A stretch of DNA of 26,180 bases from a virus. Its lineage: Duplodnaviria > Heunggongvirae > Uroviricota > Caudoviricetes. The notes beneath the pieces are model-generated. The model searched no databases, was not told where the DNA came from, and worked only from the letters and a program-made list of their open reading frames with translations. Below are positions 2,003-20,491 of the stretch, in pieces (positions within the stretch are counted from its first letter, which is position 1; every line of letters starts with the position of its first letter). The translations under genes were made by a program, and so were the position numbers. Location of the stretch: positions 1 to 26,180 of the IMG/VR virus record IMGVR_UViG_2698536580_000004; one strand, given 5' to 3'.

Positions 2003-2572
2003 ATGAAACATTTAATGATTGACCTTGAAACAATGGATAATAAACCGACTTCTGCGATTGCTTCTATCGGTGCTGTGTTCTTTGACCCTGAAACTGGCGA
2101 AATGGGTGAGCAGTTTTATCAACGTGTCAGCCTGGGCAGTTGTGTAGGCCACGGTCTCACTATGGGTTCAGAAACCGTATTATGGTGGATGCGTCAGGAT
2201 GCCGAAGCGCGTAGCGAGCTGCTTAATGATGATTGCCTGGACTTGCCTCTGGCTTTAGCGAATCTGGAAGCCTTTATTACTGAGCATTCTGACCCATCTA
2301 AAGTGCAGGTATGGGGGAATGGTGCGGCGTTCGACAATGTTATTTTACGTAATGCATCAGATAAATGCGGGTTTGCCGATCCACTTTGGTACTACTGGAA
2401 TGACCGTGATGTAAGAACGGTTGTTGAACTTTCAAAAACACTTGGGCTGAATGTTCGTAATATTATTAAGTTTGATGGTGTTAAACATCACGCTTTATAT
2501 GATGCCATTCATCAGGCTAAAGTTGTTTCTTATGTCTGGATGTACCTTGTAAAAATAGCTAGTGTGAAATGA
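2003..2572 (+). CDS. DEDDh-family 3'-5' exonuclease (DnaQ/RNase T-like fold)
   Basis: 189 aa; N-terminal MIDLETMD (Exo I, D-x-E), mid NGAAFD, C-terminal HHALYDA (H-x4-D) fit DEDDh exonuclease motifs; strong SD AAGGAG before the ATG. Confidence 0.7.
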   Translation: MKHLMIDLETMDNKPTSAIASIGAVFFDPETGEMGEQFYQRVSLGSCVGHGLTMGSETVLWWMRQDAEARSELLNDDCLDLPLALANLEAFITEHSDPSKVQVWGNGAAFDNVILRNASDKCGFADPLWYYWNDRDVRTVVELSKTLGLNVRNIIKFDGVKHHALYDAIHQAKVVSYVWMYLVKIASVK

Positions 2573-2793
2573 CGATGCTTACAGTGACCTCTCATGCAAG
2601 TGAAAGTGTCATAGCAAAGGCATTTTCTGTGCTGACGGAATATTACAGCGGCAAAAAAGTATATCAGGTTATAAAACCGCATCATTATTTTTCTGTGCAT
2701 GTCTCTTATCGCTGGCGATTATTGAGTAAAGATAGGGGGCGGCATTGGGAGTTAATGACGCATGAGCGATATAACAAACAATACCGAATATAG
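2569..2793 (+). CDS. hypothetical protein
   Basis: 74-aa ORF whose ATG overlaps the exonuclease stop (ATGA); no motif recognised. Confidence 0.4.
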   Translation: MTMLTVTSHASESVIAKAFSVLTEYYSGKKVYQVIKPHHYFSVHVSYRWRLLSKDRGRHWELMTHERYNKQYRI

Positions 2794-2831
2794 TTTTTTG
2801 CCTTTTATACCTTTCTACATCTGGATTAATT

Positions 2832-5489
2832 ATGAATGCCACAATACAGCAGGACGTTGTGCGCCGGCTCGTTCAGGATTTTGAATTTAAAGAACGGGAT
2901 AAATATTTGCAGCAGGGCGTTTGCCCTAAATGCCATAAACGCGAATTATTCACCAGTATAGAAAAGCCCTGGATACTGAAGTGCGGCCGTGAAAACAACT
3001 GCGGCCATCAGGTCGTTGTCAAAGAGCAGTATCCTGAAATCTTTGAGGACTGGTCTAAGCGGTACCAGGACACCCCTGAAACCCCACATGCCGCTGCTGA
3101 GGCGTACCTGCGTGAGGCGCGGGGGCTGGATACTGAACCGCTAAAAGGTTGCTTTACTCAGGGCGCGTTCGTGAAGGATGGCATGGGGTCGGCAACGGTC
3201 AGATTTTCGCTGTCATGCGGTGCAACATGGGAGCGCATCATTGACCAGCCGCAGCGCTTTGGTAAGCAGAAAGCGAACATCAGAGGCAGCTATGTTGGTC
3301 ACTGGTGGGTTCCGCCTTCTGTGAACCTGCTGGAAGTGGATGAAATCTGGATCACTGAGGGAATCTTCAACGCACTGAGTCTGTGCCAGGCAGGGTTTCC
3401 TGCAGTTGCCACACTGAGCAGTAACAACTATCCGCTGGCCGCACTGGATTCGCTGGCCAAAGAACTGGGTGAAAAACCACGTCCACGTCTTGTATGGGCG
3501 TTTGACGGCGATAAAGCCGGCACAAAGCACACGCTGGCGTTCGCTGCCCGTAGTGATGCTGCAGGATGGAAAACCCGTGCCGCGCAGCCGGTGAAATCAT
3601 CGGCATCGCTGGACTGGAATGACCTGTTGTTACGTAACCGGTTCAGTAAGTCGGACATTAAAAATTATCGCTACTATGGCGATCTCCTTCTGGCAAAAAG
3701 CCCGACTGAGAAAGCCCTTCTTATGCATCAGCACAATGAATGGCACTCGTTTTATTTCGAACATGGTTCCCGCATGTACTGGTTTGAGCTGGATCTGGAC
3801 AGGTACATGCGAGCCTATGAGCGCATCACCAATACCGGTACCGAAGTGGTGATGGAGTGGGAGGCAAAAGAACGGGCGGTTAAAGAGTCAGGCGGTGTGA
3901 CCGAAATTGCCAACTGCTGGCTGACGCCGCTTTATTTCCAGCGGTCTGAACCTACAGACGAGTCCTGGTATTACGTGAAGGTCAGTATGCCGAACCGGCC
4001 AGCCGTGAAAGATACTTTTACGGCTAATCAGCTCACCAGTTCCGCCGAGTTCAAAAAGCGTCTTCTGCATATCGCCAAGGGGGCGGTGTATACCGGCAGT
4101 ACCAAACAGCTGGATAAGTTCATCCAGATGCGCCTCCCTGAAATCAAAGAAGTTAAGACGCAGAATTTCATTGGATACAACAAAGATTATGCCGCCTGGC
4201 TATTTAACCGTGTGGCCGTGTGTGATGGCCGGCTGTATGAGATGAACGACGAGGATTATTTCGAAATCAACAGCGCCAGCGTTAAGAGCCTGAGCCTCAC
4301 GCCGGCGCTGGATCTGAATCCGAAGCTGAACGAATTCACCACGGGCTGGGTTGACGATATCTGGACAGCGTTTGGTGAAAAAGGGTATGTGGCGCTGGCG
4401 TTCTGGCTGGGGTCGCTGTTCGCTGAGCAAATCCGGGAGCGTGACAAGTCATTTCCGTTTCTGGAAATCGTGGGCGAGCCGGGGACAGGTAAATCCACGC
4501 TGATAGAATTTCTCTGGAAGCTCGCCGGCCGTGAGGAATACGAAGGGTTTGATCCTTCTAAATCAACAGCCGCAGCGCGTGGACGCAACTTTGCCCAGGT
4601 TGGCAACCTTCCGGTTGTGCTGATTGAGGGCGACCGCACCACGGATAACGCTAAACAACGCGCTTTTGACTGGGACGAGCTGAAATCACTGTATAACGGT
4701 CGTGCCTCCCGTGCCGTGGGTATCAAATCGAACAATAACGAGACGTATGAGCCGCCATTCAGGGGAAGCATTGTGATAGCGCAAAATGCCGACACAGACG
4801 GCAGCAAGGCCTTTCTGGAGCGTATCATCCACATCTATACCGACAAGCGCGGCCAGTCCATTCAGACCCGCTACGCCGCCGAACGGCTTGAACAGATACC
4901 CGTTAGTCAGGTATCCGGGTTCACACTGCTGGCCACCATGCGTGAAAAAGAAATCATGAAGGTGTTCGGTCAGGGCTACGAACGCGCCCGTAGTGAGCTG
5001 GAGTCCAATACCAGTATTCGCCATATTCGTATCGCCAAAAACCACGCGCAACTGGTTGGTCTGCTGGATGCGCTGGCGTTGGTTGTACCAGTACCGATGG
5101 AACGTATTGAGAAGACCCGCGATGCAATTACCGCGCTGGCCGTGGAACGGTGTCAGGCGCTTAAAAAGGATCACCCTCTGGTGCAGGAATTCTGGGAGCT
5201 GTTTGATTACCTGGATGAACTTGCACCTTATGGCATCAATCATTCATCAGATGAAAATGAAATCGCGGTTAACTTCAATCACATGGAAGAGGTAGCCGCA
5301 GCACACCGGCAGCGTATTCCGTTCACATTAACGGAAATTAAAAAGCTGCTTAAAAACGGTAATGAACGGCGGTTCATCAGACAAAGTACCACGCGCAGCG
5401 CGGTAAGTGAGCGCCATAATCGTGGTAAAGGGGATATGCAACGGATGCCGGAAACATTCCGCTGCTGGATATTTAATAGAGAAAAGTAG
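2832..5489 (+). CDS. replication primase-helicase (zinc ribbon + TOPRIM + P-loop NTPase; P4 alpha-like architecture)
   Basis: 885 aa. N-terminal CPKCHKRE...LKCGRENNCGH zinc ribbon; TOPRIM-like WITEG (Glu) and WAFDGDKAG (DxD); Walker A GEPGTGKST followed by VVLIEGD. Confidence 0.75.
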   Translation: MNATIQQDVVRRLVQDFEFKERDKYLQQGVCPKCHKRELFTSIEKPWILKCGRENNCGHQVVVKEQYPEIFEDWSKRYQDTPETPHAAAEAYLREARGLDTEPLKGCFTQGAFVKDGMGSATVRFSLSCGATWERIIDQPQRFGKQKANIRGSYVGHWWVPPSVNLLEVDEIWITEGIFNALSLCQAGFPAVATLSSNNYPLAALDSLAKELGEKPRPRLVWAFDGDKAGTKHTLAFAARSDAAGWKTRAAQPVKSSASLDWNDLLLRNRFSKSDIKNYRYYGDLLLAKSPTEKALLMHQHNEWHSFYFEHGSRMYWFELDLDRYMRAYERITNTGTEVVMEWEAKERAVKESGGVTEIANCWLTPLYFQRSEPTDESWYYVKVSMPNRPAVKDTFTANQLTSSAEFKKRLLHIAKGAVYTGSTKQLDKFIQMRLPEIKEVKTQNFIGYNKDYAAWLFNRVAVCDGRLYEMNDEDYFEINSASVKSLSLTPALDLNPKLNEFTTGWVDDIWTAFGEKGYVALAFWLGSLFAEQIRERDKSFPFLEIVGEPGTGKSTLIEFLWKLAGREEYEGFDPSKSTAAARGRNFAQVGNLPVVLIEGDRTTDNAKQRAFDWDELKSLYNGRASRAVGIKSNNNETYEPPFRGSIVIAQNADTDGSKAFLERIIHIYTDKRGQSIQTRYAAERLEQIPVSQVSGFTLLATMREKEIMKVFGQGYERARSELESNTSIRHIRIAKNHAQLVGLLDALALVVPVPMERIEKTRDAITALAVERCQALKKDHPLVQEFWELFDYLDELAPYGINHSSDENEIAVNFNHMEEVAAAHRQRIPFTLTEIKKLLKNGNERRFIRQSTTRSAVSERHNRGKGDMQRMPETFRCWIFNREK

Positions 5490-5520
5490 GAGGAAAGTTC
5501 TATGTGTGATTGCTTAAAAC

Positions 5521-5778
5521 ATGTCGGTAATGCAGTTAAAACTCGTCTGCTTGAAAAAAGTACCTGAAGGAGCGGAAGTATTTGAGGGATTCGAGACGGG
5601 GTGGGATAACTCTGTATTTTTTCTTTCTAGTGGTCGTATTCATGTAAATATGCGCTATAAGATGGCATTCAGGGCGAAAAAGAAAAATGGTGACATGGCA
5701 AAGAACCTTACTCATCTGGAGTGCAGTGTTGCGATGGCATATTGCCCGTTTTGTGGTGAAAAAGAGAACGCCTTATGA
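5521..5778 (+). CDS. hypothetical small protein (coding status uncertain)
   Basis: 85-aa ORF in the AT-rich segment after the primase gene; no SD at its ATG; contains a T-rich low-complexity stretch; C-terminal CPFCGE. May instead be non-coding (possible cos region). Confidence 0.3.
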   Translation: MSVMQLKLVCLKKVPEGAEVFEGFETGWDNSVFFLSSGRIHVNMRYKMAFRAKKKNGDMAKNLTHLECSVAMAYCPFCGEKENAL

Positions 5779-10198: not shown

Positions 10199-11227
10199 AT
10201 GCAATTAAATGCGAAAGCCCGTGAGTTCCTGCTTCAGTATCACACCGGGCTGCGTGAATCCTACGGGGCGACCGACAGTGAACGCTGGTTTGCACTCACC
10301 GACCCCAAAGAAACCCAGCTGCGCAATGCGCTGATGGAGCAGTCTGATTTCCTGAATCTGATCACCGTTGCCGATGTCGATCAGCTGCAGGGGCAGGTGG
10401 TTCCGGTTGGCAGCTCTGGCCTGTATACCGGGCGTGTGCTGGATGGCCGCTTCCGTAAGAAAGTGGGCGTGAGTGGTAATGATTACAGTCTGGTCGAGAC
10501 TGACTCATGCGCCGCACTCACCTGGCAGTTGCTTTCTGTCTGGGCGAACGCCGGCGATGAAAACGAGTTTTTCCAGCGTGTTCAGGAGTTCACCAATCAG
10601 GCGTTTGCGCTGGATATGCTGCGTATCGGCTTTAACGGTACCAAAGTAGCCGAAACCACGAACGCGGAAACCAACCCGAACGGCGAGGATGTGAACAAGG
10701 GCTGGCATCAGATCGTCAAAGAGTGGAAGGACGGCCAGCAGATCATCACTGATGCGGTGGTGCTGGACGGTGACGGGAAAGGCGATTACGTGTCGCTGGA
10801 TGCAATGGCTTCCGATCTTATCAATACCAAAATCCCGGCACAGTACCGTAATGACCCGCGTCTGGTGGTTCTTGTCGGCGCTGACCTTGTGGCAGCTGAA
10901 TCTTTCCGCCTGTACCAGAAAGCGGATAAGCCGACCGAGAAGATTGCCGCACAGCTGCTGTCTGACAGTATCGCCGGCCGCACGGCTTACGTCCCGCCGT
11001 TTATGCCGGGCAAACGTATGATCGTCACCACGCTGCCGAACCTGCACATCTACACCCAGCGCGGCACGCGCCAGCGCAAGGCAGAGTTTGTGGAAGACCG
11101 TAAACAGTACGAAAACAAATACCTGCGTAACGAAGGTTATGCGGTTGAGTATCCGGAACTGTACGCCGCGTTTGATGAAAGTGCGGTAACTATCGGGGCA
11201 CCTGTCGCGCCTCCGGCAGGCGAGTAA
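10199..11227 (+). CDS. N: major capsid protein (P2 gpN-like)
   Basis: 342 aa, directly after the scaffold gene with an AAGGAAA SD; size and synteny match P2 gpN. Confidence 0.8.
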   Translation: MQLNAKAREFLLQYHTGLRESYGATDSERWFALTDPKETQLRNALMEQSDFLNLITVADVDQLQGQVVPVGSSGLYTGRVLDGRFRKKVGVSGNDYSLVETDSCAALTWQLLSVWANAGDENEFFQRVQEFTNQAFALDMLRIGFNGTKVAETTNAETNPNGEDVNKGWHQIVKEWKDGQQIITDAVVLDGDGKGDYVSLDAMASDLINTKIPAQYRNDPRLVVLVGADLVAAESFRLYQKADKPTEKIAAQLLSDSIAGRTAYVPPFMPGKRMIVTTLPNLHIYTQRGTRQRKAEFVEDRKQYENKYLRNEGYAVEYPELYAAFDESAVTIGAPVAPPAGE

Positions 11228-11237
11228 GGGGGATTTA

Positions 11238-11936
11238 ATGCAACTGTCACCGGCACAGCGCCACAGCGCACGAATTGAAGCGGAGCGGTTACTGCGACAG
11301 CAGCAGTCTCTGGACACGGAAACCAGCCTGCATATTCAGATTGTCGCGCTGGAGAAAGATGTCGTCGCAGCTGCAGCGATTGAAAGCCGCGCTGAGCGCA
11401 TGGAGTTTAAGCGTGATGTGCTGTTACCGCGCTGGATGCCGACCGCGCAATCCTGGCTGGAAGGTGACAGTGTGCAACAGAATCCTGTTTTTGCCTGGTG
11501 TGTCGTCTGGCTGTTTGATACAGGCCAGTTTGACCAGGCGCTGGACTGGGCGGATGTGGCAATCCAGCGGGGGCAGGAAACCCCGGCCGCGTTCGGCAGT
11601 ACGTTCCCGGTGTTTGTGGCGGATACGGTGTTGTCCTGGGCGGAAGCGGAAGCCGTACAGGGGCATGAAGTGGAGCCGTACTTCAGCCGTACGCTGGAAA
11701 ACGTGACGCAGCACTGGAATGTGTATGAGGTCATTAAGGCCAAATACCTGAAGTTTGCCGGTCTGCACCTGCTACGCGATGAAAACGGAGAGCCACGCGC
11801 AGCGGCAACGGAAGACAGGGAAGTATTGCTCCGGGCTAAGGAACTGCTGGAGCAGGCGAAGGGATTCGACCCTAAATGTGGTGTCGGCACGATGTTGCAG
11901 CGTATTGCTGCGCGTCTGCGGGCGCTGAAAAAATAG
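11238..11936 (+). CDS. M: terminase small (endonuclease) subunit (P2 gpM-like)
   Basis: 232 aa; position after the capsid gene and size match P2 gpM. Confidence 0.7.
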   Translation: MQLSPAQRHSARIEAERLLRQQQSLDTETSLHIQIVALEKDVVAAAAIESRAERMEFKRDVLLPRWMPTAQSWLEGDSVQQNPVFAWCVVWLFDTGQFDQALDWADVAIQRGQETPAAFGSTFPVFVADTVLSWAEAEAVQGHEVEPYFSRTLENVTQHWNVYEVIKAKYLKFAGLHLLRDENGEPRAAATEDREVLLRAKELLEQAKGFDPKCGVGTMLQRIAARLRALKK

Positions 11937-11952
11937 TCTACGGGAGTTTGAT

Positions 11953-12144
11953 ATGTCGTTTAAGCATGAGTTAGGCCAGGTTGTTGAAGTTTCCATTAGC
12001 GGCGAAGAGGGGCATATCAAAGCCCGTGCGGAGTACACCAACAGCTGCAATCAGTATCTGATCCACTATCAGACTGCTGACGGTCGCGCATCTGATGCGT
12101 GGTTTGAAGAAGGTGAGATTCAGGCCGCAAAACGCGGCGAGTAA
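11953..12144 (+). CDS. hypothetical 63-aa protein
   Basis: Short ORF with a GGGAG SD inserted between the small terminase and head completion genes; no motif recognised. Confidence 0.4.
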   Translation: MSFKHELGQVVEVSISGEEGHIKARAEYTNSCNQYLIHYQTADGRASDAWFEEGEIQAAKRGE

Positions 12145-12157
12145 GACTACCGACCCG

Positions 12158-12224
12158 AAAGCGGGCGCGGTGGAGGGGATCGCATAAGCGTATCGCCCGT
12201 GGAAACCGGCCAGCCCGCTTTTTT
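12158..12224 (+). terminator. structured element / possible attenuator or terminator before head completion gene
   Basis: GCGGGC (12161-12166) pairs with GCCCGC (12213-12218), followed by TTTTTT (12219-12224); the ~46-nt intervening GC-rich loop may fold further. Confidence 0.35.
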
Positions 12225-12237
12225 CCGGAGAAACAGG

Positions 12238-12690
12238 ATGTTCAGCGGAACTTCAATTGATTTTGACGATGCCACTCTGACGAATGATGGCTTCTGGCCT
12301 GACCTGAGCGTGAAGGATTTTCAGTCCCAGCGCACCATTCCGGCCGATATTGATGTGGCCACCATCCGCCAGGCACTGCTGACTGCAGCCGGCGAAATCA
12401 ATGATGATCTGGTCAGTGTGGCGGCAAGGTATCGCAATGCTGGCCATGAGCGCGCGGCGGACGTTCCGGGCGTGGAAATTGACGGCGAAAATCTGTTGTG
12501 CGCCCGTTATCGCAAAGCGGTATATGCACGTGCCAAAGCTGATTTGATGGGCGAATTTGCGTCTGTTGGTCGCCGTGAGAGCCATCCGGGGCAGGAAAGT
12601 GACGAAACCCGCTCCAGCCTGATTGCAGAGTCCACACTGGCAGTACGCCGCATCAAAGGGCTGAAACGCATTACGGTGGCCATGATATGA
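12238..12690 (+). CDS. L: head completion/stabilisation protein (P2 gpL-like)
   Basis: Track ORF starts at GTG 12199; ATG at 12238 (MFSGTSIDF) follows a GGAGAAACAGG SD; ~150 aa; position after small terminase. Confidence 0.6.
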   Translation: MFSGTSIDFDDATLTNDGFWPDLSVKDFQSQRTIPADIDVATIRQALLTAAGEINDDLVSVAARYRNAGHERAADVPGVEIDGENLLCARYRKAVYARAKADLMGEFASVGRRESHPGQESDETRSSLIAESTLAVRRIKGLKRITVAMI

Positions 12691-13169
12691 GCCAGTTAAC
12701 GGCATTAACCGATTTTCTCATTGCGAACATGCCCAGACGGGCAATGCAGGGATTTGACAGCCAGATGGACGAGATCGCGTTCATCCCGGCACAGCGGGAC
12801 ATCGGGCTGGGGCAGTACCGTATTGCCATCATCCGTTATAACGCCGTGCTGACGTGGGAGCGTTATCCCTACCGCGAGTACGATCCCAAAATCCTGATGG
12901 CTTTGTTTATGTCGTGGCTTTGCCAGGATGAGCGCACGCTCTTTGAGGAAACCGGCATTGACGCCGAGCTGCCGGAATTTGATATCGAAACCATCGACCA
13001 GGAAACCGCCATCATGGTGGTGACGCTGCCAATGGTGGAGGAACTTAATCTGGTTCCCGATCCCAAAGGCCAGATCCCGTTTGATGGCCAGCGCTGGAAG
13101 CTGGCAAACCCCGAAGTCTGGACGGCTGATGAGGTGACGGTGATTCCGGTCAGTGAGGGGCAGGAATGA
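12687..13169 (+). CDS. putative tail completion protein (gpR-like)
   Basis: 160 aa; ATGA overlap with the upstream gene; called by position between head completion and the morphogenesis gene. Confidence 0.4.
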   Translation: MSQLTALTDFLIANMPRRAMQGFDSQMDEIAFIPAQRDIGLGQYRIAIIRYNAVLTWERYPYREYDPKILMALFMSWLCQDERTLFEETGIDAELPEFDIETIDQETAIMVVTLPMVEELNLVPDPKGQIPFDGQRWKLANPEVWTADEVTVIPVSEGQE

Positions 13170-13870
13170 TAAATGGCGAGCTGAACAAGGAACAGTTCCG
13201 CCAGCTCCAGGAGGCGCTGAAAAAACTGGATTTACCTTCTGCGAAACGTCGCCGGCTGTTGTGGCGTATGGCGAAATACGGCGTGGAAGCTGCAGCAAAG
13301 CGTAATGTGCGCAATCAGCAGTCGCCGGAGGGTGATAAGTGGCAGGCGCGACAGACCCGGCGTAAAGGCAAAATGTTGCGCAATATGCCGAAACTGATCC
13401 GCATCCGGGAAATGCCTGAAACAGAGTCGGTCAGGCTGTATCTGGCCGGTGGTCATTACCGGAATGCGAAGGGAAATCTGCCCGCCGGCGTGGTGGGGTA
13501 TGTCCAGCAGAACGGCATGAGCGTGACCGTCAACCGTAAGCAGGTGGAAGGCCGTGAGCAGGGGGACAAGCCTGCATCACTGCGACAGGCGAAACGTCTG
13601 CGCAAGGCCGGGTATAAAGTCAGGCGCGGTAAGCGCTGGCGTAAGCCCGGTTATAAGGAAATACAGGAAAGGATGACCGCCAGACAGGTAGGTTTGCTTA
13701 TCCGGATACTGGAGGACAAACCGGTCAAAACGTCCTGGCAGATTGATTTACCTGCCAGGGCGTTTCTGGGGATAGGTCAGGATGATTTTAACAAAGCGCT
13801 GGCGCGACAGCTGCAGGCTATCGGGTTCGGCTGGGATGTTAACGCGCAGGATATCAGGGGGAGAGCATGA
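13166..13870 (+). CDS. virion morphogenesis / tail completion protein (gpS-like)
   Basis: 234 aa, basic; ATGA overlap; positional call only. Confidence 0.45.
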   Translation: MINGELNKEQFRQLQEALKKLDLPSAKRRRLLWRMAKYGVEAAAKRNVRNQQSPEGDKWQARQTRRKGKMLRNMPKLIRIREMPETESVRLYLAGGHYRNAKGNLPAGVVGYVQQNGMSVTVNRKQVEGREQGDKPASLRQAKRLRKAGYKVRRGKRWRKPGYKEIQERMTARQVGLLIRILEDKPVKTSWQIDLPARAFLGIGQDDFNKALARQLQAIGFGWDVNAQDIRGRA

Positions 13871-14994
13871 CCTGGCCAATTGTGACCGTAAACCAGGTAA
13901 ATCAGCTGCTGGGTGAAACCACGGAAGTGGAGCGCACGCTGCTGTTTATCGGCACGGGAACCAAAAATGTAGGTAAGACGCTGGCAGTTAACGCACAGAG
14001 TGATTTTGATGCGCTGCTGGGCGAGGGTGACAGCCCGTTAAAAAGTGATGTGCTGGCCGCACTGGCGAACGCCGGCCAGAACTGGTGGGGATTTGTTCAT
14101 GTGCTGGCCGCAGACAGCGAGCCGGGGGCATGGGTGGATGCCGTTAAGGCCGCACAGCTCTCCTGTTCGGTGGAAGGTGTGGTGCTGTCTGATGATGTGG
14201 CCGCGAAAGCGCAGATTAACCAGGCGGCAACGCTGCGATCTGAACTGATTGCTAAATACGGGCGCTGGGTGTGGTTCATTCTGGCGGTTCAGGGGATGCA
14301 GCAGGATGAAGCCCAGGCGGATTATCTGGTGCGTCTGTCCACTCTTCAGGAAGGTATTGCGGAAAAAGCGGTACAGCTGGTACCCCGTCTCTGGGGGAAT
14401 GAACCGGGCGTGCTGGCTGGTCGTCTCTGCAACCGTGCTGTCACCATCGCCGACAGTCCGGCGCGGGTGAAAACAGGCGCGTTGCTGAGCATGGGCAGTG
14501 ATGAACTGCCGAAAGACGGTGCCGGCGAAACGCTGGAACTGGCGACCCTTCAGGCGCTGGAGGCACAGCGCTACAGCGTGCCGATGTGGTATCCGGACTA
14601 TGACGGCTTTTACTGGGCTGACGGGCGCACGCTGGACGTTGAGGGCGGCGATTACCAGTCCATTGAGACGCTGCGTATTGTGGATAAGGCAGCACGCCGC
14701 GTCCGTCTGCTGGCCATCGGTAAGATTGCCGATCGCTCACTTAACAGTACACCGGGCAGTATTGCCGCACACCAGACGCTGTTTGCCCGTCCGCTGCGGG
14801 AAATGTCCACTGCGGCCAGCATTAACGGCGTGTCATTTCCGGGCGAGGTGAAACCTCCACAGGACGGTGACGTGACCATTGTCTGGAAGAACAAAAAGGC
14901 GGTGGATATTTACATTGTGGTGCGTACGTATGAAGTACCGCTGCAGATCACCATCAGTCTGTTACTGGATGCAAGTCTGGAGGCCAGCGCATGA
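13867..14994 (+). CDS. putative contractile tail sheath protein
   Basis: 375 aa, largest structural ORF directly upstream of a ~150-aa tube-sized gene in a tail with baseplate J-like and fibre genes; positional inference. Confidence 0.45.
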   Translation: MTWPIVTVNQVNQLLGETTEVERTLLFIGTGTKNVGKTLAVNAQSDFDALLGEGDSPLKSDVLAALANAGQNWWGFVHVLAADSEPGAWVDAVKAAQLSCSVEGVVLSDDVAAKAQINQAATLRSELIAKYGRWVWFILAVQGMQQDEAQADYLVRLSTLQEGIAEKAVQLVPRLWGNEPGVLAGRLCNRAVTIADSPARVKTGALLSMGSDELPKDGAGETLELATLQALEAQRYSVPMWYPDYDGFYWADGRTLDVEGGDYQSIETLRIVDKAARRVRLLAIGKIADRSLNSTPGSIAAHQTLFARPLREMSTAASINGVSFPGEVKPPQDGDVTIVWKNKKAVDIYIVVRTYEVPLQITISLLLDASLEASA

Positions 14995-15446
14995 CCAAAC
15001 GTATTTCAGGGATGTCCTTTGATATCTATCTGGACGGTGACCTGATCCACATTGAAAAAATTTCGCTGGATATTACCGATAACAGCGCCGCCGCACAGAC
15101 GCGCGGTGTTCCTGACGGGTATGTGGACGGTGACGTTGCCGCCGAGGGTGAAATTGAAGTCAGCTCCAAAGTGCTGCAGGTTCTGACAGCCAAAGCCCGT
15201 TCAGCGGGGTCATGGCGTGGCATTCCTCCGGTTGACTTCCTTTTTTACGCCAAAGCCGGCAGCGAAGAAATGAAAGTGGAAACCTTTGGTAACAAGCTGC
15301 AGCTCAACAGCGTTCTGGATGGTGATCCGAAGGGTGGCAGTGTGTCCACGCATAAAATCAAATACTTCGTGACAAGTCCGAAGTTCGTCAACATCAACGG
15401 TGTGCCGTATCTGGAAGCGGAAGCCACGGAAAACCTGATTGGATAA
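14991..15446 (+). CDS. putative tail tube protein
   Basis: 151 aa, ATGA-coupled to the putative sheath gene; positional inference. Confidence 0.45.
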   Translation: MTKRISGMSFDIYLDGDLIHIEKISLDITDNSAAAQTRGVPDGYVDGDVAAEGEIEVSSKVLQVLTAKARSAGSWRGIPPVDFLFYAKAGSEEMKVETFGNKLQLNSVLDGDPKGGSVSTHKIKYFVTSPKFVNINGVPYLEAEATENLIG

Positions 15447-15458
15447 GAGGCAGCAGGG

Positions 15459-15755
15459 ATGCAGGAGTACGAAAAGGGGTTCATTGCACTGGCAGTCATG
15501 GGGGCGCTGATTGCGCTGGGTAAATTGCTTAACAGTGATGAACCGATCACCCTTCGTCTGGTGGCGGGGCGTGTCATTGTGGGCAGCGGGCTGTCACTGA
15601 TTGCCGGGGTGGCGCTGTACTTTGTCCCGGATATTCACCCGCTCGCATTAGCCGGATTTGGCTCTGCGCTGGGTATCCTGGGGCAGAATGCGGTGGAAGC
15701 CTGGCTGCGTAAGCGGGGTTTTACAGGGATTTTTGATAAAGGGACAGGGAAATGA
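15459..15755 (+). CDS. holin (three predicted TM segments, charged C-terminus)
   Basis: 98 aa with hydrophobic segments FIALAVMGALIALGKLL, VIVGSGLSLIAGVALYFV, LALAGFGSALGILG and basic tail RKRGF; immediately upstream of the endolysin. Confidence 0.6.
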   Translation: MQEYEKGFIALAVMGALIALGKLLNSDEPITLRLVAGRVIVGSGLSLIAGVALYFVPDIHPLALAGFGSALGILGQNAVEAWLRKRGFTGIFDKGTGK

Positions 15756-16093
15756 CTCTGAGCGAAAAACAGCAACTCTTTACCGTTATGGTGGCAAATC
15801 TGATCCAGTGGGCTGAAGAACATGGCTACCGGCTGACGTTTGGTGAGGCTTACCGTACCCCGGAACAGGCTGCACTGAACGCGAAAAAAGGCAGCGGCAT
15901 TTCCAGCAGTCTGCACACGCAACGTCTGGCCGTGGACTTCAATCTGTTCATTAATGGCCAGTATCAGACCGACAGCGCGGCGTATCTGCCGCTGGGTGAA
16001 TACTGGGAATCGCTGGGTGGTTCATGGGGCGGTCGCTTCAAATCCCGCCCTGATGGTAATCATTTCAGCCTGGAACATAACGGGGTGCGCTGA
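15752..16093 (+). CDS. endolysin, M15-family zinc peptidase (L-Ala-D-Glu peptidase type)
   Basis: 113 aa; SLHTQRLAVD (H-x6-D) plus downstream DGNHFSLEH fit the His-Asp-His zinc site of M15 peptidases; ATGA overlap with the holin. Confidence 0.7.
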   Translation: MTLSEKQQLFTVMVANLIQWAEEHGYRLTFGEAYRTPEQAALNAKKGSGISSSLHTQRLAVDFNLFINGQYQTDSAAYLPLGEYWESLGGSWGGRFKSRPDGNHFSLEHNGVR

Positions 16094-16425
16094 TGGATCG
16101 CGTCGTGTCAGGCTGGTTATTCACTCTTGCTCTGGCATTTATAGCCGGCTGGAAAACGGCCGGCTGGCAGCGGGACAGTGTTGATCTGACTGTCTCAAAA
16201 GCGGTCACCGCGACCGGGGAACAACTGGCTGAAATTGCCGGTTCATCCGGTCGCCGGCTGGAAGACAAACTGGAGGCACTGAAAAATGCGCCACCGCGTG
16301 AAATCCGCACGGAAGTGGTTAAGCCGGTATTTACTAATAAGTGTCTGTCTGATGACTTTGTCCGCATGTACAACGACGCCGTCACCAGTACCGAACGTAC
16401 GTTATCAGGAAAACCTGAAAACTAA
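16093..16425 (+). CDS. i-spanin (Rz-like)
   Basis: 110 aa, N-terminal TM segment (WLFTLALAFIAGW) then a charged periplasmic region; start overlaps the endolysin stop (TGATG). Confidence 0.6.
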   Translation: MDRVVSGWLFTLALAFIAGWKTAGWQRDSVDLTVSKAVTATGEQLAEIAGSSGRRLEDKLEALKNAPPREIRTEVVKPVFTNKCLSDDFVRMYNDAVTSTERTLSGKPEN

Positions 16426-16585
16426 ATGCGCCACGCAGCTGCCGCGCCTGAGTGGAACGCAGGGAAAAGATGCGGCGGAATTACTGACACTTTATCTGGA
16501 GTTATACGGGCAGTGTGCTGCACGGCATAACGCACTTGTTGATGAAATTAATTTAAGAGAGAACGTTATTTATGGAAAAAATTAA
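16286..16585 (+). CDS. o-spanin lipoprotein (Rz1-like), out-of-frame overlap with i-spanin
   Basis: Different frame starting inside the i-spanin gene; signal peptide ending in lipobox LSAC (Cys codon 16367-16369) then Pro-rich TTTPSPVP; extends past the i-spanin stop. Confidence 0.55.
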   Translation: MRHRVKSARKWLSRYLLISVCLMTLSACTTTPSPVPNVRYQENLKTKCATQLPRLSGTQGKDAAELLTLYLELYGQCAARHNALVDEINLRENVIYGKN

Positions 16586-16829
16586 TCTGGTTGTATGCAA
16601 AAAAGAAATCACCTTTGAACCGAATCAGACTGCTTATAATAAGTTCATCAACGAAATGGCGATGGATAATAAAGTGGCACCTGCACACAATTATCTTGTG
16701 CGCATTGTGTCTGCTGAAAGTAAAGAGGCGCTGGAAGATATTCTGAAACGTCCGGGCGCAGCGCTCCAGCTTGCCGGGAAAGTGAATGAGCTTTATGCGC
16801 CAGAACTGGAAATTGAAGTAAAAAACTGA
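16572..16829 (+). CDS. tail assembly chaperone (short form)
   Basis: 85-aa AT-rich ORF directly upstream of the tape measure gene; ends with slippery A_AAA_AAC next to its stop. Confidence 0.55.
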   Translation: MEKINLVVCKKEITFEPNQTAYNKFINEMAMDNKVAPAHNYLVRIVSAESKEALEDILKRPGAALQLAGKVNELYAPELEIEVKN

Positions 16830-17020
16830 CAAAACGAGTCCGGGCAATTGAACAGAACGGACTCGAACAGTATTTAATTTTACGTCGCCATTATTTACCA
16901 CACGGTCAGGATTCCGTGGATGATATTTCCGCTGCCATCTGGCTGGATAATCGCCACTGGGAAAATATGCGAATAGCGGTTGCTAACGGAATCAGCACTG
17001 CATTTAAAGGCACGGAATGA
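16572..17020 (+). CDS. tail assembly chaperone, -1 frameshift-extended form (shift at 16820-16826)
   Basis: After a -1 slip on A_AAA_AAC the frame from 16826 is open for 64 codons (LTKRVRAIEQNG...AFKGTE) and stops at TGA 17018-17020, overlapping the tape measure ATG 17017. Confidence 0.5.
16820..16826 (+). other. candidate -1 programmed ribosomal frameshift slippery heptamer A_AAA_AAC
   Basis: X_XXY_YYZ heptamer directly before the chaperone stop codon; the -1 frame is open to the tape measure start. Confidence 0.5.
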
Positions 17021-18984
17021 AACAGTTAGATTTTACATTAAGCCTGATTGATAAGCTGACGCGCCCGTTAAAACAGGCGCAGGGCAGCGTCACCGGCTTT
17101 GCGGAAAAATCAAAAGCGGCCTTTTCGCAGATTGGCGGCGGCGTGCTGGGGCTGGCCGGTACGGGGATGGCCATAAAAGGCGCGTTATCGCCGGCTATCG
17201 AAATGTACGACGCGCTGAATGATGCCGCCGCAAAAGGGATTGATAATCAGGCATTAAAGACCGTACAGCGTGACGCGCTCCGGTTCAGCATGACCTACGG
17301 TGCCAGCGCGGTGGAGTTCGTCAAATCCACAGAGAACATTAACGCTTCCATTGCCGGCCTTACCGCCAGCGAGCTGCCGAAAGTGACGAAGGTCGCTAAT
17401 ACGCTGGCGTTTGCCCTGAAATCCACATCCGCCGACACGGCGGAGTTCATGGGGCAGATGTACGGTAACTTTTCCGCCGATGCGGCGCGGCTGGGTAAAG
17501 TCCAGTTCGCCGAGCAACTGGCGGGAAAAATGGTGTATATGCGCAAGGTCTTCGGTACCGAAATGGGTACCATCAAAGACCTGATGGAAGGGGCGCGGGG
17601 TGTCGGGACTAACTACGGCGTCGGGCTGGATGAACAGCTGGCGGTGCTGGGACAGCTAAATCGTACGCTGGGGACAGAAGCCAGCAGCGCTTATGAAGGT
17701 TTCATGACCGGCGCGATGGAGGGAGCTAAAAAGCTGGGGCTGTCCTTCACGGACTCCACCGGCAAAATGCTGTCCATGCCTGAAATGCTGATCAAGCTGC
17801 AGGGCAAATACGGCAAAAGCCTGGAAGGGAACCTGAAAGCCCAGGCGGAGCTGGATGCGGCATTTGGTGACAGTTCAGCGGTGATAAAACACCTGTACGG
17901 CAATGTGGCGTTACTGCAGCGTAATATCACCGAACTGGGCGGCTCTGACGGGCTGAAGCGTACACAGGAGATGGCCGGGAAGCTGGTCAAGCCGTGGGAT
18001 CGCTTTGTACAAATCCTTAAAGCCATTCAGACGGTGATCGGACTGACGTTGATCCCGGTTCTGTACCCGGTACTGAACCGCCTGGCCGATATGGGGCAGA
18101 CGTTCGGCCGCTGGATGCAGATGTTTCCCAACATTGCGCGGGTGATTGGTTACGTGCAGCTTGCGCTGTTTGGCGTGGCGGCAGCGGGCGCGATGACAAA
18201 TATTGTCATGGGTGTCTCAAAATTTATCCTGGTGGGACTGAAGGGACTCTGGAGCGCCCTGACGCTGGTCACGAAGATTTACACGGCCACGGTCTGGGTT
18301 GCCTCAAAAGCTGTTGTGGCGTGGAACCTGACGCTGAAATTCCTGCGGGGTACGCTGCTGGCCGTGCGCATGGCGGCGATTATGGCCGGTATTGGCATCA
18401 ACCTGATGAGCTGGCCGGTTCTGCTGGTTATCGGGGCGATTGCTCTGCTGGCAGCCGGGTGTTATCTGCTGATTAAACACTGGGATGATGTGAAAGCGGC
18501 GGTGATGAATACGGCAGCGTTTACCGCCGTGGCTGGTGTGGTGGAATGGCTTGCCGGCCTGTTTTCCGCTGCGTGGCAATGGATCACGGACGGCTGGAAC
18601 AGCTTTATTGCGCTGCTGACCGGGTTTTCACCGTCACAGGCGCTAAGCGGCATGGCCAGCGGGATTGTCTCCCTGTTTGATAACGTCTGGCAGACCATCA
18701 AAGGCGGGTTCCTGAAATCGTGGAACTGGATTGTCGGAAAGCTCAATAAAATTCCGGGCGTCGATATTTCACTGGCGAACGAATCTCAACCGGCACTGAC
18801 AACGAATACCCTTTCTACTGGCGGTGAATTAAAAGGCGTTGATAAAGGCGGTATCAGTAAAACAATTAGCAGTAATTCTAAATCAGTAACGGATAACAGC
18901 CGTAAAATTGGTGAAGTGCATTTTCATACTAAAGAAGCGCTTTCACCCTCCCAGCTAATGGAATGGCAGGAGCTTAATGCGTGA
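17017..18984 (+). CDS. tail tape measure protein
   Basis: 655 aa, Ala/Gly-rich helical N-terminal part, several hydrophobic segments in the C-terminal half; directly downstream of the chaperone pair. Confidence 0.75.
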   Translation: MKQLDFTLSLIDKLTRPLKQAQGSVTGFAEKSKAAFSQIGGGVLGLAGTGMAIKGALSPAIEMYDALNDAAAKGIDNQALKTVQRDALRFSMTYGASAVEFVKSTENINASIAGLTASELPKVTKVANTLAFALKSTSADTAEFMGQMYGNFSADAARLGKVQFAEQLAGKMVYMRKVFGTEMGTIKDLMEGARGVGTNYGVGLDEQLAVLGQLNRTLGTEASSAYEGFMTGAMEGAKKLGLSFTDSTGKMLSMPEMLIKLQGKYGKSLEGNLKAQAELDAAFGDSSAVIKHLYGNVALLQRNITELGGSDGLKRTQEMAGKLVKPWDRFVQILKAIQTVIGLTLIPVLYPVLNRLADMGQTFGRWMQMFPNIARVIGYVQLALFGVAAAGAMTNIVMGVSKFILVGLKGLWSALTLVTKIYTATVWVASKAVVAWNLTLKFLRGTLLAVRMAAIMAGIGINLMSWPVLLVIGAIALLAAGCYLLIKHWDDVKAAVMNTAAFTAVAGVVEWLAGLFSAAWQWITDGWNSFIALLTGFSPSQALSGMASGIVSLFDNVWQTIKGGFLKSWNWIVGKLNKIPGVDISLANESQPALTTNTLSTGGELKGVDKGGISKTISSNSKSVTDNSRKIGEVHFHTKEALSPSQLMEWQELNA

Positions 18985-19310
18985 GTGGGATTCTCTATAT
19001 TGACCTGCTTATTGAGCATGGTGACTTCTCATTAAATGCCGGTAATGAGCCTGAATTATGCAATAACCGAAAAAGTATCGGGCAGGACATTATTCACGCC
19101 ATTATTGAGAGCGGATTAGCCACGCAATTAATTGCGGAACGCAGTCCGACACTGAGGGCAGATATTTTTACACAACTGGAATTACTGGTTGAAAACGATG
19201 AGCGCATTGTGCCGGGAACGGTGGAAATCAGTGAAGAAAGCCAGAAACGGCTGTGGGTGACCGCGAGCACATACGATTTTGGCACGCTTTCATATCAGGT
19301 GGACTTATGA
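18981..19310 (+). CDS. putative baseplate/tail protein (small)
   Basis: 109 aa; GTG start overlapping the tape measure stop (GTGA); AT-rich; no motif recognised. Confidence 0.4.
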   Translation: MSGILYIDLLIEHGDFSLNAGNEPELCNNRKSIGQDIIHAIIESGLATQLIAERSPTLRADIFTQLELLVENDERIVPGTVEISEESQKRLWVTASTYDFGTLSYQVDL

Positions 19311-20491
19311 CGGAAAAGCCCCAGGTTGATTTTGAAGAAGTGGTGAAAGCCGGCGGGATGCCGGTGACGGAATCTGAGGTTCGCGATCGCTTCAATGCGA
19401 TTGCAGCTGACGAGGGGATTATCACCAATACGTCCCGCATGTCACCGTTCTGGCGGTTAATCACCGCCATTGTGACCGCGCCAGTGATGTGGCTGAAAGA
19501 CGTTCTGGTGTTCACCGTGCTGGCCAATATGTTTGTGGCCACAGCCAGCGGGAGCATGTTGCGTCTGCTGGCGTGGGCGGTGAACGTCACGGCAAAACCG
19601 GCGAGCGCTGCACAGGGTGTGATCCGCTTCTTCAAAGAAGATGCAAAAGCTGTGGTGACGGTGAAAGCCGGGACGATTATCCAGACAGAGCGCATTAACG
19701 GCCGCGTGTATGAGCTGGCCACCAGTGAGGATGTGGTGATCGCTTCCGGTACGGCCAGCGCATTACTGCCGGTGAAAGCCACCGGCACCGGGGGCGCATA
19801 TAACCTTGCGCCGGGATATTACCGCATTCTGCCGGTTGCCGTTGACGGTATCAGCTACGTGACCAGCGAAGAAAACTGGCTGACCGTACCGGGCGCGGAT
19901 GAAGAAAGTGATGACGAGCTGCGCGAACGCTGCCGCAATCAGTTCAATCTGGTGGGGAATTACCACACTGACGCCGTTTACCGGTCGATGATTGCCGGCG
20001 TTGCAGGGCTGAGTATTGACCGGATTTTCTTTGAACATGAAGCGCCGAGGGGACCCGGTACCGCCAACGCGTATCTGTTGCTGGACAGCGGGGTGGCCTC
20101 TGCGCCTTTCGTGGATGCGGTGAATGACTATATCAACACGCAGGGACACCACGGGCATGGTGATGATATGCAGTGCTATTCCATGCCGGAAACGCTTCAC
20201 GATCTGGTCGTCACGGTTTATGTCAAAAATCTGAACAACTTCAGTGACGAAGAAGTGAAAACGCTGAAGGGCGGCATTGAAAACATGATCCGCTGTGCCT
20301 TTCGTGAGAATGCTGATTATGACGTCAGAAAGACGTGGCCATATTCACGGTTTTCCTTTTCTCAGCTGGGGCGGGAGATCCACAGGACATTTACTCAGAC
20401 GGAATCACTGTCTTTTTCGCTGGGTGATATCACCAGCGAACTGAGTGTGCCACGCCTGAAATCGTTAACGGTGGGTATTGAAAATGAGTGA
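19307..20491 (+). CDS. putative baseplate wedge protein (baseplate J-like)
   Basis: Track frame starts at 19253 but the ATG at 19307 (MTEKPQ) overlaps the upstream stop (ATGA); ~394 aa; precedes small tail protein, fibre and Tfa, the order seen in P2 J-I-H-G and e14-type modules. Confidence 0.45.
   Translation: MTEKPQVDFEEVVKAGGMPVTESEVRDRFNAIAADEGIITNTSRMSPFWRLITAIVTAPVMWLKDVLVFTVLANMFVATASGSMLRLLAWAVNVTAKPASAAQGVIRFFKEDAKAVVTVKAGTIIQTERINGRVYELATSEDVVIASGTASALLPVKATGTGGAYNLAPGYYRILPVAVDGISYVTSEENWLTVPGADEESDDELRERCRNQFNLVGNYHTDAVYRSMIAGVAGLSIDRIFFEHEAPRGPGTANAYLLLDSGVASAPFVDAVNDYINTQGHHGHGDDMQCYSMPETLHDLVVTVYVKNLNNFSDEEVKTLKGGIENMIRCAFRENADYDVRKTWPYSRFSFSQLGREIHRTFTQTESLSFSLGDITSELSVPRLKSLTVGIENE

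Follow-up and report, generated by a model that had tools for sequence, protein, structure and literature searches.

The region between positions 15459 and 16585 of the window, by which we mean the whole stretch of 26,180 nucleotides of viral DNA analysed here, is very probably (at roughly 93%) a canonical lysis cassette working in three steps, which belongs to an HP1-like temperate phage of the P2 family (Peduoviridae) with Enterobacteriaceae as hosts and is placed in the slot usual for this lineage. This reading builds on observed gene structure, protein families, conservation, dual-coding constraint and synteny. Four open reading frames on the plus strand make up the cassette, namely those of a holin (15459-15755, 98 aa), an M15-type endolysin (15752-16093, 113 aa), an i-spanin (16093-16425, 110 aa) and an o-spanin (16286-16585, 99 aa), the last of which is read in the +1 frame relative to the i-spanin. 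The ATG of the holin gene follows the stop codon of the preceding tail tube gene after a gap of 12 nt. The holin and endolysin genes are joined by an ATGA overlap, the endolysin and i-spanin genes by a TGATG overlap, and the two spanin genes share 140 nt. A GGAGG motif is situated 9 nt upstream of the o-spanin start. Since the ATG of the succeeding tail assembly chaperone gene is found at position 16572, the o-spanin stop lies 14 nt beyond it, creating a final overlap of 14 nt. The first-pass annotation had claimed four lysis genes, each coupled to its neighbour; all four are indeed present where it had placed them and their junctions overlap. It had also named profile searches as a check which might overturn this assignment. 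In these searches each of the four ORFs falls into a lysis family and none into a structural family. The GC content of the cassette amounts to 54-58%, which is the same as that of its neighbours. Neither the ORF list nor the sequence gives evidence of an antiholin in the form of a dual-start motif or a homologue of P2 lysA. None of the antisense ORFs (15245-15577, 15635-15922, 16065-16385, 16566-16901) matches a family, and an Rfam scan of the whole window yielded no matches. A 76-aa ORF (15954-16184) within the endolysin and i-spanin genes, which had been flagged by a relaxed lipobox regular expression, was rejected as its N-terminus is not signal-like, its start is unconserved and it has no PHROG match.

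The holin is assigned to PF04550 (Phage_holin_3_2) by the Pfam scan with an E-value of 1.7e-40, its score of 137.7 bits being set against a gathering threshold of 25 and the alignment covering positions 1-86 of the 86 model positions. The PHROG scan identifies it as a phrog_175 holin (E=6e-37), and P2 gpY shows 42% identity to it (E=5e-21). Three hydrophobic stretches at residues 5-25, 34-59 and 61-75 correspond to predicted transmembrane segments and are followed by a basic C-terminus. We are hence dealing with a predicted membrane protein with a basic tail whose gene adjoins, via the ATGA overlap, that of a muralytic enzyme. The earlier call of this gene as a holin is corroborated by the agreement of PF04550, phrog_175 and the three hydrophobic stretches. 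In the NCBIfam scan there is no match for the holin, the endolysin, the i-spanin or the chaperone.

The endolysin scores 43.7 bits against PF13539 (Peptidase_M15_4) in the Pfam scan, where the cut-off is 25, and its several PHROG matches all represent endolysin families. It harbours the motifs H55-x6-D62 and D101-x-x-H104. Among 29 homologues H55, D101 and H104 are invariant while D62 is at least 90% conserved. The M15 endolysin with H-x6-D and a C-terminal His, as proposed before, is thereby upheld by a family score above cut-off and by the conservation of all four residues. The homologues form more than 3000 clusters bearing the name M15 family metallopeptidase, mostly proteins of 113 aa from Enterobacterales. 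The AF2 model of the enzyme is of moderate confidence (pLDDT 77). A Foldseek search with this model returns Ply500, ChiX and EndoT5 as top three PDB matches, all of them weak both in E-value (7e-3 to 8e-2) and in fold similarity (TM 0.43-0.52), and the matches ranking behind these three are noise. A sequence search against the PDB gives marginal matches only (E=0.13-0.5, including 2mxz at E=0.18), the best two of which are NRPS carrier domains and irrelevant. The catalytic domain of Ply500 (2VO9), Serratia ChiX (5OPZ) and EndoT5 (2MXZ) have the zinc-binding and catalytic motif H-x6-D plus D-x-x-H in common with the window enzyme, and H66-x6-D73 of EndoT5 aligns with H55-x6-D62. Identity to these three proteins ranges from 22 to 25% with weak scores, and the window enzyme, with its 113 aa, is the shorter one. 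We assign it to the small M15 (LAS-type) zinc peptidases; by analogy with these three proteins it is probably an L-Ala-D-Glu endopeptidase. No hydrophobic stretch and no signal or SAR sequence was detected in the endolysin. Lacking a hydrophobic N-terminus, it should therefore need a hole-forming holin.

The i-spanin possesses a single N-terminal transmembrane segment (residues ~3-20) and is predicted to be a type II inner-membrane protein with a periplasmic domain. It is recognised as an Rz-like spanin by the PHROG scan (phrog_1152, E=5.7e-35) and has no Pfam or NCBIfam match. Its conserved cysteine is part of a PVFTNxC motif present in all relatives compared. The o-spanin starts with the signal peptide MRHRVKSARKWLSRYLLISVCLMTLSA and continues with the lipobox LSAC, in which Cys28 is followed by Thr at +2; the mature part of 72 aa begins with the proline-rich sequence CTTTPSPVP. 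It is thus characterised by a lipoprotein signal, a lipobox cysteine predicted to be lipidated, the absence of Asp from position +2 and a mature domain of small size. Thr at the +2 position of a lipoprotein directs it to the outer membrane. In the PHROG scan the o-spanin matches phrog_2425 (E=9e-34) and the Rz-like spanin family phrog_456 (E=6e-7). Its scores against PF23793 LysC (22.7 bits) and, in NCBIfam, NF038368 P2_Rz1 (21.4 bits) are both below the respective cut-off of 27, and a BLASTP comparison with P2 LysC gives an E-value of 0.004. We therefore predict an o-spanin-like function for this protein, with a kinship to the LysC family that is distant at best. Its start at 16286 lies inside the i-spanin gene (16093-16425) in another frame and its end at 16585 lies past the i-spanin stop. 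This arrangement is the 'overlapped' one of three standard spanin architectures and has its prototype in P2 lysB/lysC (Kongari et al. 2018, PMC6139136). The earlier description of an o-spanin which starts within the i-spanin gene in another frame, carries LSAC and runs into the chaperone start holds in every respect, the frame being +1, the lipobox cysteine Cys28 and the overrun 14 nt. The definition of the two-component 'overlapped' architecture used here follows Summer 2007 and Kongari 2018.

Seven relatives (ev239, ESSI-2, ev129, ev015, two E. coli prophages and YenM_324) retain the o-spanin ORF with its lipobox and two further cysteines; together with the start, these features persist down to ~52-65% nucleotide identity. 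The dual-coding segment is 83-88% identical in ESSI-2, ev129, ev015 and EC22 compared to 57-77% in the single-coding flanks; for the more distant YenM_324 the respective values are 65% and 52%. Within the segment which encodes solely the o-spanin, variable columns peak at the third position of the o-spanin codons (44 versus 30 and 21). Judging by this pattern, the overlapping o-spanin ORF is a genuine gene, beyond chance. In the ESSI2_ev239 record the o-spanin is unannotated, and in several other records it is truncated.

The late operon surrounding the cassette is of the HP1-like type, with a DUF2586 sheath, a Phage_HP1_Orf24 tube and a Phage_TAC_10 chaperone, the lysis genes being situated between the last two. 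The sheath gene upstream of the tube gene is identified by both the Pfam and the PHROG scan (DUF2586, phrog_907). The tail tube gene (14991..15446, plus strand; PF10772 Phage_HP1_Orf24, E=8.7e-63; phrog_1182 tail protein), whose product matches that of ev239 with 100% identity and that encoded by HP1 orf24 with 61%, forms the upstream boundary of the slot. Its downstream boundary is the tail assembly chaperone gene (16572..16829, plus strand; PF10963 Phage_TAC_10, E=1.3e-35). Lysis genes occupy the slot between tube and chaperone also in HP1, K139, Kappa, PV94, SMHB1, phiO18P, phi3, C5a, ESSI-2, ev129, ev015 and YenM_324, and the phage genomes examined with this arrangement number 15. In addition, we surveyed 80 loci with an HP1-type tube, one genome per species, using an alignment of five tube sequences as query. 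An insert of 0.7-1.6 kb separates tube and chaperone at every locus with enough downstream DNA (77/77). Homologues of the window holin and of the spanin pair are found at 33 Enterobacterales loci, 31 of which possess the M15 enzyme too. At these same loci identity amounts to 45-84% for the holin and to 71-96% for the endolysin, pointing to mosaic cassette components. The HP1-type modules examined span Enterobacterales, Aeromonadales, Pasteurellales, Vibrionales, Alteromonadales and Pseudomonas. The holins in the slot belong to three Pfam families (PF04550, PF16080 and PF05106), and the enzymes likewise to three families, M15, Phage_lysozyme and a Pesticin-type muramidase. The o-spanin which K139 carries in this slot passes the LysC/Rz1 cut-off with 73.6 bits. 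The members from Pseudomonas have embedded spanins, with the i-spanin gene adjoining the chaperone gene. Placement between tube and chaperone is both universal and ancestral in the HP1-like branch of Peduoviridae, as these genomes show. The first-pass annotation had correctly located the lysis genes of P2 elsewhere, the order in that phage being L, X, Y, K, lysA, lysB, lysC, R, S. The unusual position of the present cassette which it had implied is, however, not borne out, as the slot is filled in all 77 loci and all 15 phage genomes. The survey rather illustrates neatly how one fixed position in the genome can accommodate non-homologous but functionally equivalent holins and endolysins.

The closest named relative is Escherichia phage ESSI2_ev239 (NC_049392, Evevirus, Peduoviridae), whose genes gp14-gp11 show 98% nucleotide identity across the 1127-bp region with gene order and lengths as in the window. 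Its record names a holin, an endolysin, an Rz-like spanin and a tail assembly chaperone. Compared with the whole window, ESSI2_ev239 is 92.6% identical over 89% of the length, the left 2.5 kb being different. Related E. coli prophages share the cassette genes, which PGAP names “phage holin family protein” and “M15 family metallopeptidase”. Cronobacter phage ESSI-2, which shows ~76% nucleotide identity and whose record has no holin annotation, contains an orthologous spanin pair with the same geometry and, as in the window, the o-spanin lipobox LSAC. This pair is classified as 'ovl' with an i-spanin of 110 aa, an o-spanin of 99 aa and an overlap of 140 nt (Kongari et al. 2018 supplement, PMC6139136). 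The HP1 spanins are 'ovl' with an overlap of 83 nt (PMC6139136). In Haemophilus phage HP1 the genes hol and lys follow the tail tube gene ORF24 and precede ORF25, and experiments have characterised their products as a pinholin and a SAR endolysin (2020, PMC7312051). HP1 thus resembles the window in the slot, in the order of holin, endolysin, i-spanin and overlapped o-spanin, and in the A_AAA_AAC frameshift site of the chaperone gene. Its parts, in contrast, are non-homologous, with the pinholin belonging to PF16080 and the SAR lysozyme to PF00959, while the window encodes a PF04550 holin and a cytoplasmic M15 enzyme. The complete order in HP1 is sheath orf23, tube orf24, hol, lys, orf25 (Rz-like), orf26 chaperone and orf27 tape measure. 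The lytic module is said to have been described already with the HP1 genome in 1996. P2 shares with the window a homologous holin, gpY, as well as the overlapped arrangement of lysB/lysC, and its cassette is flanked by the tail genes X and R. It differs in the placement of the cassette relative to sheath and tube, in the use of the K lysozyme instead of an M15 enzyme and in the possession of lysA, which is absent from the window. The similarity between the spanins of P2 and those of the window is marginal (E=0.004-0.006). Because the end of P2 lysC covers the first 38 nt of R, the tail gene that comes next, the overrun of the window o-spanin into the adjoining tail gene is not special.

Three other readings of the region were weighed against that of a lysis cassette. 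The M15 gene being located within the tail operon, its product might be a virion-associated tail murein hydrolase which serves DNA injection, with the tail-block location reflecting a structural role. Tail-associated lysins can indeed contain peptidase domains, those of the M15 type among them. Yet the M15 protein consists of a single domain of 113 aa without any structural domain, its gene overlaps the holin stop as well as the i-spanin start, and every PHROG match is an endolysin family. In other lineages, moreover, the slot is taken by unrelated muralytic enzymes (Phage_lysozyme, Pesticin-type muramidase) which are always found beside holins and spanins, and the HP1 enzyme of the same slot acts as an endolysin (PMC7312051). 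We consider a tail hydrolase very unlikely. Even less credit is due to the idea that 16286-16585 is no gene but a frame which happens to be open over the i-spanin. It could draw on the lack of this ORF from the ESSI2_ev239 annotation, its truncation in several other records and LysC/Rz1 scores under the curated cut-offs. It is difficult to reconcile, however, with the retention of ORF, start, lipobox and two further cysteines down to ~52-65% nucleotide identity, the third-position periodicity of the o-spanin frame past the i-spanin stop and the raised conservation of the overlap. The matches to phrog_2425 and phrog_456 and the curation of the ESSI-2 orthologue as an o-spanin (PMC6139136) speak against it as well. 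Finally, one may conceive of the cassette as a moron-like element, recently inserted or relocated in the window phage alone and splitting its tail operon. While the different location of the P2 lysis genes and the mosaic character of the components (holin versus endolysin identity in the same loci) would fit such an event, lysis genes fill the slot in all HP1-type tail modules examined (77/77 loci and 15 phage genomes), and the GC content matches that of the neighbouring genes. We likewise regard a recent insertion as very unlikely.

The notion that the position of the lysis cassette upstream of chaperone and tape measure has been selected, with the translation of these two being coupled to that of the spanins, also appears improbable, albeit somewhat less remote than the readings above. 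The 14-nt overlap between the last lysis gene and the start of the chaperone would suit a coupling, and so would the in-frame fusion of these two genes in K139 and Kappa. Tight packing of phage genes accounts for the overlaps equally well, though, and in Pseudomonas, where the spanins are embedded, it is the i-spanin gene which stands next to the chaperone. If real, the coupling would link the stoichiometry of tail assembly to the lysis programme beyond mere co-transcription.

The lysis cassette genes appear to be co-transcribed within a single late morphogenesis operon. Scanned for promoters and terminators, positions 11000-19500 contain fewer such sites than shuffled controls do; no promoter-like and no convincing terminator-like site borders the cassette, whose genes are also closely packed against their neighbours with regard to translation. 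From homologues we infer lysis activity, cleavage specificity, topology and lipidation and propose the following course of events. The P2-Y-type holin with its three transmembrane domains would build up in the inner membrane and trigger at a set time, giving rise to holes. Through these the cytoplasmic 113-aa M15 zinc peptidase would cross and cleave the murein within its peptide stems, most likely at the L-Ala-D-Glu bond as is the case for EndoT5, Ply500 and ChiX. The i-spanin would be held in the inner membrane by its N-terminal transmembrane domain, whereas lipidation of the o-spanin would occur at Cys28 and the residue at +2, being Thr and not Asp, would direct this protein to the outer membrane. 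The complex of both spanins would span the periplasm and disrupt the outer membrane after the loss of the murein.

The cassette with its four parts, the overlapped spanins and the position between tube and chaperone are all already documented for the HP1-like lineage, as is evident from the HP1 genome of 1996, the HP1 lysis study of 2020, the spanin census of 2018 and the RefSeq annotation of ev239. The practical gain is one of annotation and concerns, on the one hand, the full-length o-spanin with its start at 16286, which includes signal peptide and lipobox and is absent or 5'-truncated in most related records. On the other hand, it concerns the reading of a -1 frameshift in the chaperone gene in place of a separate small ORF. 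The end of the chaperone gene is formed by a slippery heptamer A_AAA_AAC at 16820-16826, from which the -1 frame remains open for 66 codons to position 17020 (extension at 16820..17020, plus strand), where it meets the tail tape measure gene (17017..18984, plus strand; PF10145 PhageMin_Tail; phrog_28 tape measure) in an ATGA junction at 17017-17020. The heptamer and an extension of 62-66 aa are kept in ev239, ev129, ev015, EC22, YenM_324, HP1 and phiO18P, and phi3 and C5a exhibit variants thereof. The extension matches phrog_7050, and the frameshift is of the same classic type as that of the P2 chaperone E/E'. An extension of the chaperone, added by the -1 frameshift, is the better reading of the small ORF between chaperone and tape measure. 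PGAP calls a separate “DUF6890” ORF at this site. In K139 and Kappa, o-spanin and chaperone form one in-frame ORF of 192 aa containing a LysC and a Phage_TAC_10 domain.

The outer membrane spanin (o-spanin) of the window is encoded at positions 16286-16585, and the annotation of this gene varies among the relatives (the window compared with loci L001, L002, L009, L010, L011 and L012). Position 16286 is the counterpart of the conserved start of the full-length o-spanin, which comprises n-region, h-region and lipobox. The gene is unannotated in the record of ESSI2_ev239. In those of ev129, ev015, YenM_324 and two E. coli prophages annotated by PGAP, the gene as annotated lacks its 5' end, the truncation reaching into the signal peptide or beyond it. 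The ESSI-2 record contains the full-length gene, labelled "hypothetical". Both in PV94 and in the window the o-spanin and tail assembly chaperone genes are separate and overlap. In contrast, a single unbroken ORF of 192 amino acids spans both proteins in the K139/Kappa species (5194-5772 of the K139 locus L005; 4694-5272 of the Kappa locus L094), and within it a LysC domain (73.6 bits) as well as a Phage_TAC_10 domain (66.1 bits) is recognised.

The 3' end of the chaperone gene of the window is formed by the slippery heptamer A_AAA_AAC (16820-16826, plus strand), past which the -1 frame remains open for 66 codons up to position 17020, where its end overlaps the ATG of the tape measure gene as ATGA. 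Heptamer and an extension of 62-66 amino acids are kept in ev239, ev129, ev015, EC22, YenM_324, HP1 and phiO18P, and variant heptamers are present in phi3 (AAAAAAG) and C5a (AAAAAAA). Public records do not treat the extension as a frameshift product but list it as a small ORF of its own, named "DUF6890 family protein" or "hypothetical protein".

Between positions 16350 and 17100 the GC content falls to 42-46% compared to 52-60% in both flanks; this stretch takes in the chaperone gene with its frameshift extension as well as the 3' end of the o-spanin gene. Megablast gave no match to ESSI2_ev239 for the first 2.5 kb (1-2517) of the window; the remainder is 92.6% identical to this phage. Since the similarity of the lysis cassette, amounting to 98%, lies above this average, the sequence comparison suggests mosaic exchange.

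Two contigs labelled as Bacillota/Bacillales MAGs (L014 and L036) bear a window-like prophage module of enterobacterial type with P2-Y-type holin, M15 enzyme and tube identities of 89% and 71%; they are probably mis-binned. In Yersinia phage vB_YenM_324 (L012) the gene labelled "topoisomerase" in RefSeq (2365-3504) occupies the sheath position immediately 5' of the tube gene and is likely a misannotated tail sheath gene.

A gene for a DksA/TraR-type C4 zinc-finger protein is missing from the tube-to-chaperone slot of the window and its close relatives. Outside Enterobacterales the slot opens with such a gene (69-72 amino acids) ahead of the holin gene (L005-L008, L094-L096 and 33 of loci L046-L093), and in phiO18P a DNA methyltransferase gene is also inserted between the holin and endolysin genes.
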